5,898 nt of DNA from a virus (lineage: Duplodnaviria > Heunggongvirae > Uroviricota > Caudoviricetes), in IMG/VR virus record IMGVR_UViG_2713896773_000011. The stretch is one strand, 5' to 3'. Position 1 is the first letter of the stretch. Every line of letters begins with the position of its first letter. Under the pieces are notes generated by a model. That model searched no databases, was not told the DNA's origin, and worked only from the letters and a program-made list of their open reading frames with translations. Positions 901-5,549 of this stretch are shown here, piece by piece. The position numbers and the translations under genes were made by a program.

Positions 901-1842
901 ATGAGCACTAAATTAACCGGCTATGTATGGGATGGTTGCGCAGCGTCAGGCATGAAATTATCCAGCGTGGCAATTATGGCACGCCTGGCTGATTTCAGTA
1001 ATGACGAAGGTGTGTGCTGGCCATCAATTGAAACCATTGCCCGCCAGATTGGCGCGGGGATGAGTACCGTCAGAACGGCTATCGCACGGCTGGAAGCAGA
1101 AGGCTGGTTAACGCGTAAGGCGCGTCGCCAGGGTAACCGCAATGCGTCGAATGTTTATCAGCTTAACGTTGCGAAGCTTCAGGCTGCGGCTTTTTCTCAA
1201 CTGTCAGATTCTGACCCGTCAAAATCTGACGCATCAAAATCTGACCCGTCAAAATTTGATGCGTCGAAATCTGGCAAAAAAGCGGGTTTTCACCCGTCAG
1301 AATCTGGCGGGGATCCGTCAGTAAAATCAAAACATGATCCGTCAGATAAAAAAACTTCTCGTCCGGACGCTTCGCAACCGGACACGCAGAAGGCTGAACA
1401 GGATTTTTTAACTCGCCATCCTGATGCGGTTGTATTCAGCCCTAAAAAGCGCCAGTGGGGGACGCAGGATGATTTGACCTGCGCACAGTGGCTCTGGAAA
1501 AAAATCATCGCCCTGTACGAGCATGCCGCCGAATGTGACGGCGAGGTGGTTCGTCCCAAAGAACCGAACTGGACAGCCTGGGCAAACGAAATTCGCCTGA
1601 TGTGTGTGCAGGATGGTCGTACTCATAAACAAATCTGCGAGATGTACAGCCGCGTCAGCCGCGATCCGTTCTGGTGCCGTAACGTGCTCAGCCCGTCGAA
1701 GCTGCGGGAAAAATGGGATGAGCTTTCCCTGCGCTTATCGCCGTCCGTCAGCACGTACACCGAAAAACGCGAAGACCCGTACTTCAAAGCCAGTTACGAC
1801 AACGTGGACTACAGCCAGATCCCGGCAGGATTCAGGGGGTGA
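901..1842 (+). CDS. Phage replication initiation protein (N-terminal winged-HTH DNA-binding domain, repeat-encoded linker, C-terminal DnaT/primosome-like domain)
   Basis: 313-aa ORF with GAGG 6 nt upstream of ATG 901. The N-terminus (SSVAIMARLADFSNDEGVCWPSIETIARQIGAGMSTVRTAIARLEAEGWL) is typical of HTH replication initiators. The central linker is encoded by tandem 15-bp repeats. The C-terminal region resembles phage replication/primosomal proteins. Confidence 0.85.
   Translation: MSTKLTGYVWDGCAASGMKLSSVAIMARLADFSNDEGVCWPSIETIARQIGAGMSTVRTAIARLEAEGWLTRKARRQGNRNASNVYQLNVAKLQAAAFSQLSDSDPSKSDASKSDPSKFDASKSGKKAGFHPSESGGDPSVKSKHDPSDKKTSRPDASQPDTQKAEQDFLTRHPDAVVFSPKKRQWGTQDDLTCAQWLWKKIIALYEHAAECDGEVVRPKEPNWTAWANEIRLMCVQDGRTHKQICEMYSRVSRDPFWCRNVLSPSKLREKWDELSLRLSPSVSTYTEKREDPYFKASYDNVDYSQIPAGFRG
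1201..1353. repeat. Iteron-like array of 15-bp direct repeats (consensus about CCGTCAAAATCTGAC) inside the replication gene; putative origin of replication
   Basis: Five contiguous in-phase 15-bp units at 1201-1215, 1216-1230, 1231-1245, 1246-1260 and 1261-1275, then degenerate copies starting at 1294, 1315 and 1339, followed by an A7 tract at 1347-1353. They encode DPSKS/DASKS pentapeptide repeats. The arrangement is analogous to lambda ori lying inside gene O. Confidence 0.6.
1834..1839 (+). promoter_or_regulatory. Shine-Dalgarno (AGGGGG) for the PerC-like gene
   Basis: AGGGGG ends 5 nt before ATG 1845. Confidence 0.5.
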
Positions 1843-1844
1843 TC

Positions 1845-2333
1845 ATGAGTCTGTTAAATGACGTTCAGAAATTCATTGAAGCCCATCCGGGGTGTACTTC
1901 CGGAGACATTGCGGATGCTTTTACAGGTTACTCACGGCAGCGCGTTCTGCAGTCAGCAAGCAAGTTACGTCAGAGTGGGCGTGTGGCTCACCGTTGTGAA
2001 GGGGATGCACGCAGACATTTCCCGCGCCAGACAAAGATATCGCCGGAGGCGGAACGGCAACCAGTTCGTGAAACCAGACCTGTGCGCAATTTCTATGTCG
2101 GCACTAACGACCCGCGGGTGATTTTGTGCCTGGCCCGCCAGGCGGAAGAACTGGAGTCCAGGGGCTTATTTCGTCGTGCTGCAACCGTGTGGATGGCGGC
2201 ATTCCGTGAAAGCCACTCCCAGCCAGAACGAAACAATTTTCTGGCACGTCGTGAGCGGTGCTTACGGAAAAGCAGCAAGCGCGCTGCATCGGGTGAAGAG
2301 TGGTATCTGTCAGGGAATTACGTGGGGGCTTAA
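1845..2333 (+). CDS. PerC-family-like transcriptional regulator with an N-terminal winged-helix-like region
   Basis: ORF with ATG 1845 preceded by AGGGGG; the six-frame track starts at GTG 1839. The C-terminal segment LESRGLFRRAATVWMAAF matches the recalled PerC/Pch hallmark (LE..GL.RRAA..W). The stop TAA 2331-2333 overlaps ATG 2333 of the next gene. Confidence 0.55.
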   Translation: MSLLNDVQKFIEAHPGCTSGDIADAFTGYSRQRVLQSASKLRQSGRVAHRCEGDARRHFPRQTKISPEAERQPVRETRPVRNFYVGTNDPRVILCLARQAEELESRGLFRRAATVWMAAFRESHSQPERNNFLARRERCLRKSSKRAASGEEWYLSGNYVGA

Positions 2334-2986
2334 TGAGTAATAAATATTGCCGGGCGCTGGTGGAACTGCGGAACAAACCAGCCCATGAACTGAAGGAAGT
2401 GGGCGATCAGTGGCGCACGCCGGACAACATTTTCTGGGGAATTAACACCCTGTTTGGCCCGTTTGTTCTGGATCTGTTCACTGATGGTGATAACGCTAAA
2501 TGTGCCGCTTATTACACTGCGGAAGACAACGCGCTGGCGCATGACTGGTCAGAACGTCTTGCGGAGCTTAAAGGTGCTGCCTTTGGTAATCCCCCATACA
2601 GCCGCGCCAGTCAGCATGAGGGGCAATACATCACCGGCATGCGTTACATCATGAAACATGCCAGTGCCATGCGTGATAAAGGCGGGCGCTATGTTTTCCT
2701 GATCAAAGCTGCCACCAGCGAAGTGTGGTGGCCGGAAGATGCAGACCATATTGCTTTTATTCGCGGGCGTATTGGTTTTGAACTGCCAGCCTGGTTTATC
2801 CCGAAGGACGAGAAGCAGGTGCCGACAGGAGCTTTCTTCGCTGGTGCTATTGCTGTTTTCGACAAGACCTGGAAGGGACCGGCAATCAGCTACATCGGGC
2901 GCGATGAACTTGAGGCATGTGGTGAGGCGTTTCTGGCGCAGGTTCGCCAGCAGGCGGAAAAACTGGTCAGGGAGATGGCGGCATGA
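2333..2986 (+). CDS. Phage orphan DNA N6-adenine methyltransferase (Dam family)
   Basis: The FGNPPYS motif (catalytic NPPY of N6-adenine methyltransferases) is present along with conserved phage-Dam-like blocks (WRTPDNIFWGINTLFGPFVLDLFTDGDN; RYVFLIKAATSEVWWPED). ATG 2333 overlaps the upstream stop in a TAATG arrangement. The track ORF begins earlier at GTG 2300, but ATG 2333 is the more likely start. Confidence 0.88.
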   Translation: MSNKYCRALVELRNKPAHELKEVGDQWRTPDNIFWGINTLFGPFVLDLFTDGDNAKCAAYYTAEDNALAHDWSERLAELKGAAFGNPPYSRASQHEGQYITGMRYIMKHASAMRDKGGRYVFLIKAATSEVWWPEDADHIAFIRGRIGFELPAWFIPKDEKQVPTGAFFAGAIAVFDKTWKGPAISYIGRDELEACGEAFLAQVRQQAEKLVREMAA

Positions 2987-3093
2987 CGACGTTAACTCAA
3001 TGCCAGCAGCAGGTGCTGGATATGCTGATTTCTTATCAGAAAGAGCGTGGCTTTCCGCCAACCAATCAGGAGGTGGCAACCATGCTGGGATAA
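2983..3093 (+). CDS. 36-aa mini-ORF resembling the N-terminal part of the LexA DNA-binding domain (helices 1-2 only)
   Basis: MTTLTQCQQQVLDMLISYQKERGFPPTNQEVATMLG aligns by eye with the LexA N-terminus ([34 protein letters not shown]) and stops before the recognition helix. ATG 2983 overlaps the Dam stop (ATGA). Confidence 0.4.
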   Translation: MTTLTQCQQQVLDMLISYQKERGFPPTNQEVATMLG

Positions 3094-3098
3094 CCAGC

Positions 3099-3422
3099 AT
3101 GCAAAACAGCAGATCGCACTGGGGTCACAGAGAACCCAGGAAGATATCAAAATGGCTGTTGCGGATGATGATTGTGCTTCACGTGCTGTGCCTGCTGCCG
3201 CTGCTGACCGGTTGCGGAAGTACGCGGACAGTTTACGTGAGCGTTCCGGTGGCACCACTGCCACCCAGCCTGACTTCTGATACTCCTGTACCGTTTATAC
3301 CTAATCCGCTGACGTATGGTGCCAGTCTGGAGCTGAATGTGAGTCTGTTGTCTGCGCTGGCTAACTGCAATCGGGATAAAGCTGATATTCGTAAAATAGA
3401 TGCAGAGAGAACTAACCATTAA
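3099..3422 (+). CDS. Lipoprotein (signal peptide with lipobox LLTG|C; Pro-rich mature region with a second Cys); function unknown, o-spanin-like or exclusion-type
   Basis: Frame open from 2739, but the plausible start is ATG 3099 (alternative ATG 3165). It has a positively charged n-region, a hydrophobic stretch (MMIVLHVLCLLPLLTGC), Gly at +2, a proline-rich segment (VPVAPLPPSLTSDTPVPFIPNP) and a downstream Cys. Confidence 0.6.
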   Translation: MQNSRSHWGHREPRKISKWLLRMMIVLHVLCLLPLLTGCGSTRTVYVSVPVAPLPPSLTSDTPVPFIPNPLTYGASLELNVSLLSALANCNRDKADIRKIDAERTNH

Positions 3423-3443
3423 GCAATAAAATTGTCAAATTAA

Positions 3444-4070
3444 TCAGTTGTCAAATGAATATACGTTAAAGGTATATGTCGACATAATTTCACCAAGTAC
3501 CTCAATACATACACTTTTTTTATGAAAATTACTGGGAAATGAACTTAGCTCCTCAAGACATTGCACATAAGTGCTGATATCACTTGCATCACGTTCAAGG
3601 AATTTCACTTGACCAAAAGAAGGAGTTTTAATCTTGGTTCTTTGCTGGATTATATGGATAAAGTGTGTAGTTGGTGAAACTATTACTCTTGAAATATCGG
3701 AAATGATGTCTTCTTGAACTTGCCGATAAAGTAAATCCTTTGGGTAATGGTGTTTAATCTCGATGGTTGCAACATTGCCATTATGTTCAGACGTTAATAT
3801 CGACTGGTTATAAAGTGATATGTCAACAGCGCCGATACCGAGTTTTGGATGCTCACTTAAAGCAGTTAGTGTGCTGATTTGATTGAGTATAACAACTAAC
3901 TCATCACGTATTTGTGTTTCATGTTTGCGATTGTAGAAGTAGCCATTCAGTTCATTTAACTTTTTATGCATCCTATCGTGACTAATTGCTTCGATCAGTA
4001 AATCCTGAATCATACTTTTCTCTAGGTAATCCGAACGGTTGTAAGTGACAGTATTGTGCTGGCATGTCAT
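3444..4070 (-). CDS. Hypothetical protein (208 aa) with a possible PD-(D/E)xK nuclease-like signature
   Basis: Long ORF in AT-rich DNA, second gene of a minus-strand pair. Candidate motif residues are D56/E57 (RDELVV), D83 (GIGAVDISL) and E104-I-K106 (ATIEIKHH). No good SD precedes ATG 4070; an internal ATG (Met20, about 4013) follows a purine-rich stretch. Confidence 0.6.
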   Translation of the reverse strand: MTCQHNTVTYNRSDYLEKSMIQDLLIEAISHDRMHKKLNELNGYFYNRKHETQIRDELVVILNQISTLTALSEHPKLGIGAVDISLYNQSILTSEHNGNVATIEIKHHYPKDLLYRQVQEDIISDISRVIVSPTTHFIHIIQQRTKIKTPSFGQVKFLERDASDISTYVQCLEELSSFPSNFHKKSVCIEVLGEIMSTYTFNVYSFDN

Positions 4071-4113
4071 TAATATGTAAAGGTATTGTGAATGCCAGAA
4101 AGATAACGAAGTA

Positions 4114-4449
4114 TCATCGATAGAAAAACTTTACAGCCCACTCGTAAACAGCTTTGTAAATCGGTTCATGGTAAATACTATCGATACTATTCAGATGTGC
4201 GATCATCGCCTCCACAGTTGTAGTGGTTGTTTCTAATATTTCGATTATTGCAGGGCGGTCATCATCTTCATCGAAGTATTCGAACAGCAGTACAGGTTTA
4301 CCATGCAATTCAGCATCTGAGACTCTAAGGTTACAACTACCGCTCAACTCAAAGTGAATTTTGTAATTACCTTCTACAGAATGGCCTACGGGGAAAAAGT
4401 ATAGGGTGTCATCTTTGTTCAAAAGCCATTCCCATTCATAACTATTCAT
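4114..4449 (-). CDS. Hypothetical small acidic protein (111 aa from ATG 4449; 117 aa if ATG 4467)
   Basis: First gene of the minus-strand pair. A strong SD (AGGAG, plus-strand coordinates 4457-4461) sits 7 nt upstream of ATG 4449. It contains an acidic run (FEYFDEDDDRP) and a Thr5 tract. I recognise no family. Confidence 0.6.
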   Translation of the reverse strand: MNSYEWEWLLNKDDTLYFFPVGHSVEGNYKIHFELSGSCNLRVSDAELHGKPVLLFEYFDEDDDRPAIIEILETTTTTVEAMIAHLNSIDSIYHEPIYKAVYEWAVKFFYR

Positions 4450-4456
4450 TTGTGAA

Positions 4457-4461
4457 CTCCT
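4457..4461 (-). promoter_or_regulatory. Shine-Dalgarno (AGGAG) for the small minus-strand gene
   Basis: Minus-strand sequence reads ATGAACAGGAGTTCACAAATG; AGGAG is 7 nt upstream of the second ATG. Confidence 0.6.
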
Positions 4462-4536
4462 GTTCATTGAGTTTCAACAACTATCAACTACATCCAGCGA
4501 AGCATAAAAGATCGTTTATGGCAAAACCGGAATGGA

Positions 4537-4974
4537 GTGCGATTCGATTCTGAGAAGGGTGCCACGTACCGACACTGGATGGGAACGGGGACTGTCGGTG
4601 TGATGATTGCCGGCAGTGACCTGATTAATCCCATTCCGGAAGAATCAACGGAAACGGCGGCAAGACAACATATCGGGCCACTGGCCCCGGTGGCAGGCTC
4701 TGATTTGTATGTATTCAGGCCGGTGGCGCATAAAGTGGATTTTCATATCCGTGTGACGCCGGACACACCGGAAATACGGGCTGCCATCACCGCCGAGTTG
4801 CGTTCGTTCCTGCTGCGTGATGGTTATCCGCAGGGAGAACTGAAGGTGTCACGTATCAGTGAAGCGATTTCCGGTGCGAACGGGGAATACAGCCATCAGT
4901 TGCTTGCACCGGCGGACAATATCTCCATTGCAAAAAATGAACTGGCGGTACTGGGGACGATTTCATGGACGTGA
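4537..4974 (+). pseudogene. Baseplate assembly protein J-like (P2 gpJ / Mu gp47 family), C-terminal fragment only
   Basis: About 145 codons ending ...AVLGTISWT, against roughly 300 aa expected for J-family proteins. The frame is open back to 4471 with no ATG and no SD, starting at the edge of the low-GC segment. It is followed by an I-like gene and a tail fiber gene in the canonical J-I-H order. Similar to the e14 jayE remnant by recall. Confidence 0.65.
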
Positions 4975-5549
4975 CAAACGATGATTACATCCGTCTGTTG
5001 TCGGCACTGTTGCCGCCCGGTCCGGCGTGGTCAGCCAGAGATCCGGCGATTGCCGGTGCGGCACCGTCATTAACCCGCGTTCATCAGCGTGCGGATGCCC
5101 TGATGCGGGAGCTGGATCCGCGCACCACTACTGAACTGATAAACCGCTGGGAGCGTCTGTGCGGTCTGCCGGATGAATGTATTCCCGCAGGGACACAGAC
5201 CCTTCGCCAGCGTCAGCAACGACTGGATGCGAAGGTTAACCTGGCGGGCGGCATCAATGAGGATTTTTACCTTGCACAGCTTGCTGCCCTGGGCAGACCA
5301 GACGCTACCATCACGCGATACGACAAAAGCACGTTCACCTGCTCATCTGCCTGTACTGACGCGGTGAATGCGCCGGAATGGCGGTATTACTGGCAGGTCA
5401 ACATGCCAGTCGCCACCAACACCACCTGGATGACATGTGGCGATCCCTGTGATTCCGCGCTGCGCTTCTGGGGGGACACCGTTGTCGAGTGTGTGCTTAA
5501 CAAACTCTGCCCGTCGCATACCTATGTGATTTTTAAATATCCGGAGTAA
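4965..5549 (+). CDS. Phage tail/baseplate protein I-like (YmfQ / DUF2313, Mu gp48-like)
   Basis: 194-aa ORF whose ATG 4965 overlaps the upstream gene end (ATGGACGTGA). The N-terminal LLPPGPAW motif and the position between the J-like gene and the tail fiber gene support the call. Confidence 0.8.

Follow-up and report, generated by a model that had tools for sequence, protein, structure and literature searches.

The lambdoid, e14-type and SfII-type prophages carry a LexA-family regulator of 108 amino acids (aa; for example WP_000210181.1, or the 'LexA DNA binding domain protein' of Shigella phage SfII). A close counterpart of known structure is the N-terminal domain of E. coli LexA (1LEA, 1JHH and 3JSO). 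The domestication of prophages is commonly presented as a matter of random deletion together with selection. In E. coli K-12, the decay of e14 and CPS-53 left gene fragments such as oweE/aaaE and beeE/jayE; in e14 the O-like gene is joined to a terminase gene via GGT, and the portal gene to baseplate J via GGTA. Illegitimate recombination with one fixed end is a further described type, in which deletions reportedly end at the origin nick sites of M13 and pC194 or at strong gyrase cleavage sites (work attributed to Michel and Ehrlich in 1986 and to Ikeda). We analysed a stretch of caudoviral DNA of 5,898 nucleotides (nt), IMG/VR record IMGVR_UViG_2713896773_000011, hereafter the window, against these systems. 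An open reading frame (ORF) of 36 codons at 2983-3093 on the plus strand was recognised as the 5' stump of a 108-codon LexA-family prophage gene whose only Pfam domain is PF01726; it comprises codons 1-36 plus a TAA made at a junction, and very probably arose through a deletion of approximately 5.5 kb. The gene is broken there between A110 and C111, a point at which many independent deletions in other E. coli prophages also end.

The stump ORF runs from ATG 2983 to TAA 3091-3093, as read from the sequence and the ORF list, and encodes the peptide MTTLTQCQQQVLDMLISYQKERGFPPTNQEVATMLG. An earlier annotation based on the letters alone (the original prediction) had pointed to this ORF as a truncated LexA DNA-binding domain, and the resemblance held statistically. 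The peptide scored 32.2 bits against Pfam LexA_DNA_bind (PF01726; gathering cut-off 23.7 bits, E 9.2e-8), matching profile positions 1-36 of 65, and its residues 2-36 aligned without gaps to residues 2-36 of E. coli LexA (PDB 1LEA; E 1.6e-3). When window 2300-3500 was compared by megablast with 5,426 complete E. coli genomes, 2,799 records matched, and every best match ended at window 3092, inside a gene for which the annotation reads 'LexA family transcriptional regulator'. A LexA-family gene of 327 nt (108 aa) occupies this place, after Dam or yfdN, in more than 2,000 E. coli records, showing that the reading frame continues to 108 codons at the same position in related prophages, where longer homologs had been proposed as a check. 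The stump peptide was 100% identical to residues 1-36 of these full-length relatives, and NCBI already lists it as 'LexA family transcriptional regulator, partial'. The stump shares with the 108-aa family its position after Dam or yfdN, the ATGA overlap at its start and the upstream genes ymfL, ymfM, the O-like gene and yfdN. Unlike the family members, it is without codons 37-108 and takes its stop from foreign DNA. The stump is thus an ordinary remnant of a known gene family.

In a ColabFold model of a full-length relative (mean predicted local distance difference test score, pLDDT, 79), helices were predicted at residues 6-22, 28-35, 40-52, 74-87 and 93-102, with wing strands at 56-59 and 65-68. 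A complete winged helix-turn-helix has three helices and a wing, and helix 3 (40-52) and the wing (56-68) both lie beyond the stop of the stump; the model thereby bears out the earlier observation that the peptide stops after helix 2, ahead of the recognition helix. The start of the stump had been described as translationally coupled to the Dam gene, and the Dam stop and the stump start indeed share ATGA at 2983-2986, the overlapping stop and start of a coupled pair. However, the intact locus of E. coli O55:H7 CB9615 (L001) has an identical 4-nt overlap between Dam (4034-4687) and the LexA-family gene (327 nt, 108 aa; 4684-5010), indicating that the coupling comes from the intact gene and is not peculiar to the stump. 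An internal AGGAGG (3068-3073) and an in-frame ATG (3082), which would give only MLG before the stop, were present on the plus strand (3068-3084) as had been noted. A separate translation start there was rejected; in the ancestral gene these nucleotides belong to codons Gln29-Glu30-Val31 and Met34, they are common to all full-length copies in the consensus, and in the protein alignment of the full-length copies (A2) Glu30 was invariant and Gln29 nearly so.

The stump ends at deletion junction J1 (3088-3092), which joins nt 110/111 of the LexA-family gene (a slash marks a join or break throughout) to the interior of an Rz-like gene. By megablast, matches to the early region ended at 3092 in every record, and matches to the lysis region began at 3088 or 3091. 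The left parent reads ...ATGCTGGGATA/CCGTTC, its end being CTGGGATA/CCGTTC at gene nt 110/111, and the right parent reads ...CTGGAGGCTA/ACCAGC, its end being GGAGGCTA/ACCAGC inside the Rz-like gene; the window reads ...CTGGGATA/ACCAGC. The three-way alignment of both parents and the window therefore places the crossover within a 2-nt microhomology, TA (3091-3092), and the TAA of the stump consists of the TA of the Tyr37 codon plus an A from the Rz-like gene. In CB9615, the LexA-family gene precedes rusA, the KilA-N and DUF968 genes and the Q antiterminator, and in seven intact relatives the two parent sites were 5.4-5.9 kb apart. The spacing and order of the parent sites indicate that codons 37-108, rusA, the KilA-N and DUF968 genes, Q, holin, lysozyme and the 5' half of the spanin gene were removed. 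In the proposed event, a deletion of approximately 5.5 kb would have used the TA microhomology to join gene nt 110 (window 3092) to a point within the Rz-like spanin gene. This is the best overall explanation of the 36-codon ORF and we consider it very probable; that the ORF is a remnant at all is, by a shade, the safer of the two statements.

Several observations speak against this account of J1. The window is the whole of the 5,898-bp contig LDYI01000131.1 of draft assembly GCA_001309485.1, and J1 rests on that one assembly. The junction was found in none of the 5,426 complete E. coli genomes, an exact 36-mer across it was not found among the GTDB species representatives, and three metagenome contigs with the same lysC carry an intact Rz-like gene in place of J1. 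No record was found of the 77-aa ORF that spans the junction. An assembly or library chimera within a short draft contig of repeated prophage modules, with no such ORF in the organism, would agree with the contig being the entire window and with the absence of J1 and of a second junction, J2 (4564-4571), from all other records searched. However, assemblers fuse sequences at shared k-mers of tens of bases and not at overlaps of 2 nt or 8 nt, and the contig was reported from two samples. Further, the same left breakpoint was present in complete genomes and megabase contigs (a 4.7 Mb contig, L008; a 4.7 Mb chromosome, L164; H138 and H139), and a chimera at 3092 is accordingly given very little probability.

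The left half of the break site, CTGGGATA, is retained in the window at 3085-3092 (plus strand), and the complete site in the intact gene is CTGGGATA/CCGTTCAG. At least 16 distinct junctions retaining the left side of the gene and one retaining the right side fell within gene nt 109-112, in prophages at different integration sites that differ in integrase as well as chromosomal site. An exact look-up of the 36-aa product returned 153 contigs, and among ten places read the DNA after GGGATA differed in at least nine ways. The partners joined there included the interior of rusA, Q, KilA-N, HNH, the end of Nu1, the tail genes J, gp46 and stf, and also tfa; further junction types were GGGATA/GTGATG (L166), GGGATA/TCAGTGG (L174/175) and GGGATA/TGGGCG (L176). 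The right parent was recovered for 11 left-retaining junctions and usually had TA, GATA, GGATA or GGAT immediately before the join. The microhomology of the partners was thus 0-5 nt and terminal, and since the match ends exactly at the join, the homology sits at the 3' end of the retained GGGATA. The missing right half of the gene was not present within the junction-bearing loci; these events are therefore deletions, and insertion was rejected. In the single right-retaining junction (P0079/L162), a foreign N-terminus precedes the join ...CGCCTG/CCGTTCAG, which lies exactly at 110/111 with zero microhomology.

Look-ups with the exact product can return only junctions at this codon, and further tests were run without that conditioning. 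Among 120 IMG/VR loci chosen by the first 32 nt of the gene only, two held truncated copies, one broken at nt 110 and the other at nt 109. IMG/VR was also scanned, with the same design for every stretch of the gene, which combined an exact anchor with a run of N and three forced mismatches. The scan over nt 96-115 found four distinct junctions, all at nt 110-112, while the control stretches 25-64, 54-97 and 123-204 (40, 44 and 82 nt) gave 0, 2 and 1 real junctions. Four events in 4 nt against three in 166 control nt correspond to an enrichment of about 55-fold (roughly 30-55-fold), where about 0.07 events were expected (Poisson P about 1e-6). In the protein database, about 14 true chimeras were spread over codons 49-108 versus at least 11 at codons 36-37, and most of the remaining 'variants' there were frameshifts.

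The deletion in the window might be real and its recurrence a product of ascertainment, with deletions in fact ending everywhere along the gene. This is what would be seen if exact-product look-ups yield only this codon, and it agrees with the truncations and chimeras at many other codons in the protein database and with the K-12 prophages e14 and CPS-53, which broke at other points. Against it, both truncated copies among the 120 unconditioned loci break at the site, and the same scan design gave four junctions in 4 nt versus three in 166 control nt; we regard pure ascertainment as improbable. The small but unbiased samples show that the recurrent breakpoint at A110/C111 is real, and this conclusion is well supported. 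On the other side of the balance, part of the evidence for a hot spot comes from look-ups conditioned on this very breakpoint, and the unbiased samples are small (5 events versus 3). A matched IMG/VR scan for right-retaining junctions found none; selection against leftward deletions, which lose the immunity genes, may explain why right-retaining products are so few, and this too must be set against the hot spot.

Many draft contigs and 'partial' records of 28-37 aa (L167-L173; P0123-P0132) end at or just before nt 110. The genomes behind these records probably hold two copies that diverge at nt 110. One 48-aa record (P0134) has an in-frame internal deletion, …ATML/RAAHWLHERGLKV, in which codon 35 is joined to codon 96; the join lies near the breakpoint site and apparently used a GCTG repeat.

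The original prediction had left open whether the ORF is a remnant or a genuine micro-protein, and the latter did not hold up. A small-protein gene has its own stop and a conserved length, whereas intact relatives of the stump read on to 108 codons. The stop comes from the joined DNA, as TAA or TAG in some junctions, and others read through to 39, 41 or more residues. A micro-protein under selection, such as a decoy of the LexA N-terminal domain, whose truncation at codon 36 was repeatedly fixed as useful, would fit the appearance of the same 36-aa product from many junctions and its wide distribution (the 153 contigs), as well as the retention of the native start, the Shine-Dalgarno context and the coupling to Dam. 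However, the DNA breakpoint was constant whatever protein resulted. The 36-aa stop occurred in only two of the five junctions of the unbiased IMG/VR set, with the other three (L085, L133 and L135) reading through, and products of 39 and 41 aa also occur. In one event the break is at the same phosphodiester but the right half of the gene is kept, and the fragment itself has no recognition helix, wing or C-terminal helices. The constant breakpoint, the varied products and the right-retaining event point to a mutational cause and not to selection for the peptide, which makes a selected micro-protein a highly unlikely reading.

As a remnant, the stump keeps the native ribosome-binding context and the ATGA, and transcription of the early-right operon may lead to production of a 36-residue peptide. 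Judged by the model of the full-length relative, a 36-residue piece without the recognition helix, the wing and the C-terminal helices should not be able to read DNA, and the peptide is for this reason taken as inert. It is most likely an inert pseudogene product, although we hold this with less confidence than its status as a remnant, and it is to that extent a weak point of the overall account. The stump ORF in itself matters little, and its annotation as a micro-protein is unwarranted.

The only feature worth follow-up is the recurrent breakpoint, since one phosphodiester of a common prophage gene is broken far more often than its surroundings, across chromosomal sites. If a defined activity cuts there, prophages would be inactivated by a specific and testable route. 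Assemblies would also break for this reason, as many draft contigs end at that point.

The junctions combine one nucleotide-fixed end, variable partners, both polarities and terminal microhomology of 0-5 nt. From this pattern, a DNA end would seem to form repeatedly at the A110/C111 phosphodiester; such an end, formed between A110 and C111, would then be joined by microhomology priming. We propose tentatively, and give it slightly less than an even chance, that GGGATA/CCG is cut by an undescribed activity (a sequence-directed nuclease, a topoisomerase or strand transfer) that comes from the host or a co-resident phage, and that the resulting joins recurrently make E. coli lambdoid prophages cryptic through loss of late genes. 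The site resembles the fixed-end hot spots of illegitimate recombination in having one nucleotide-fixed endpoint, a variable partner and very short homology. Unlike at those hot spots, no rolling-circle initiator, nick, gyrase or recombinase site was recognised at GGGATA/CCG, and the breakpoint lies inside the coding sequence of a theta-type lambdoid prophage. The decayed K-12 prophages e14 and CPS-53 share with the window the gene order and the type of microhomology deletion, with junctions at other positions. A point that weakens the proposal is that no enzyme, structure or motif among those compared accounts for the site.

The breakpoint is the centre of a CTG-N10-CAG, which has the spacing of a LexA box (site TGCTGGGATACCGTTCAGTG). 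An SOS box was nevertheless rejected, with a score of 6.3 bits versus at least 12.9 bits for the 28 known boxes from which the matrix was built. Folding of both strands gave z-scores of +1.1 to -0.9, nothing unusual, and DNA secondary structure was rejected as the cause; a weak 9-nt inverted repeat ends at nt 109. The Din-family invertases (Pin, Gin, Cin and Hin) cross over at a 26-bp site with half-sites ..AAACC and GGTTT.. around a central dinucleotide (PMC4134206). Neither half-site around nt 109-111 fitted that consensus when compared by eye (PMC4134206). The same kind of comparison found no fit to resolvase site I, XerCD dif, Chi, EcoKI, EcoP15I, EcoP1I or type IIS sites, nor to Vsr/Dcm, RuvC, the protospacer-adjacent motif (PAM) geometry of type I-E CRISPR or the target sequences of insertion sequence (IS) elements. 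The preference of RusA for cutting 5' of CC is compatible with the site but far too unspecific. An IS element at the site was also dismissed; the IS3-family element of NCCP 13914 is located in ymfM instead. The right parent of J2, ACATA/CCGTC, shares the heptamer ATACCGT with GGGATA/CCGTTC and is cut at the same place, which could be coincidence or a sequence determinant. A second hot spot at ATA/CCGT in the baseplate-J gene was unsupported, as jayE of K-12 e14 breaks 384 nt away. Literature searches found no account of this breakpoint or of a relevant deletion hot spot in prophages.

The original prediction of a LexA-like repressor gene as the source of the stump stood as far as the remnant and its 108-aa parent in relatives are concerned; the parent, by contrast, has no peptidase domain and is not a full repressor. 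The S24 self-cleaving peptidase and dimerisation domain was absent from both the stump and the 108-aa relatives, for which the Pfam records show PF01726 only. A full-length relative matched LexA residues 2-86 in the PDB comparison (E 7.5e-16), with nothing aligned past residue 86. As a LexA paralogue, the ancestral gene consists of the DNA-binding domain only, in contrast to the full LexA repressor with its peptidase domain. Compared with E. coli LexA, both parent and stump are without the S24 domain, and the stump also lacks the helix that reads DNA.

The alignment of parent and LexA runs through the LAGE/AAGE stretch around the cleavage site: residues 84-90 of the full-length relatives (L001:4684-5010) include the self-cleavage-site stretch, with LLAGE against VAAGE. 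From this similarity, the 108-aa protein could be a substrate mimic or a non-cleavable binder of SOS boxes. The CB9615 locus has two strong LexA-box-like sites, TACTGTATTTATGAACAGTG (5448-5467) between rusA and the KilA-N gene and TACTGTTTTTACATACAGTA (1127-1146) in the repressor region; neither is in the DNA that the window retains. They scored 21-25 bits with the matrix from the 28 SOS boxes. As candidate boxes they suggest that the KilA-N anti-repressor-like gene is under SOS control and that the 108-aa LexA-like protein may have a target here. Literature searches found nothing describing the function of this LexA-family prophage gene.

The gene upstream of the stump (2333-2986, plus strand) encodes a Dam-family phage N6-adenine methyltransferase (PF05869, E 1.2e-45), whose TGA overlaps the stump ATG. 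Its longest ORF begins at GTG 2300 (228 aa), while the relatives and the source assembly start at ATG 2333 (217 aa), which overlaps the yfdN stop. Some relatives have Dam between yfdN and the LexA-family gene and others do not (H124-H137; L004 and L008-L010). The boundary of presence and absence lies exactly at the ATG of the LexA-family gene, and Dam behaves like an optional module.

Downstream of J1, window 3088-4571 was 99.9% identical to the intact relative L002. The Rz-like inner-membrane spanin gene (DUF2570) survives as a 3' remnant at 3091-3280 (plus strand), having lost its start and 5' half; the L002 coding sequence 4798-5190 corresponds to window 2888-3280, of which only the part from 3091 is kept. 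The gene lysC (3165-3422, plus strand; L002 5075-5332), for an Rz1-like outer-membrane spanin lipoprotein, is intact. A two-component spanin has an intact inner-membrane gene with the lipoprotein gene embedded in its +1 frame, and here the DUF2570 gene is gone before 3091. The intact lysC is left without a functional partner, because its host Rz-like gene has lost its 5' half. The original prediction had placed a lipoprotein start 5 nt past the stop of the stump. ATG 3099 is there, but it is probably not the real start: lysC begins at 3165, and the LysC profile (PF23793, E 3e-18) covers residues 35-103 of the ORF from 3099. From these matches, ATG 3099 is probably just an upstream in-frame ATG, and the closeness of the stump to it an accident of the deletion.

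At J2 (4564-4571), DNA upstream of the HNH and terminase genes is joined to the interior of a baseplate-J gene. By local BLAST, L002-type homology stopped at 4571 and baseplate-J homology (L038) began at 4564; the parents read CCACGTA/TCG (L002, near 6481) and GGACATA/CCGTCAC (L038, reverse strand). None of the complete E. coli genomes searched spans J2. J1 and J2 together mark the window as a twice-deleted remnant of an e14- or SfV-like prophage. It has a truncated Rz-like gene, a truncated baseplate J and ymfQ, and keeps yfdN, Dam, lysC and two cargo genes. Both ends of the window are assembly breaks in repeated prophage DNA.

The G+C content of two genes on the minus strand (3444-4070 and 4114-4467) was 33-39%, while that of the flanks was about 52-55%, and Pfam gave no significant match for either gene. 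Their counterparts in the intact L002 (5354-5923 and 6024-6359) lie between lysC and the HNH and terminase genes, and the pair resembles a moron or cargo cassette. Within the O-like replication gene, window 1210-1273 holds 4.3 tandem copies of the 15-nt unit TCTGACCCGTCAAAA, which encode PSKSD repeats and are possibly origin iterons.

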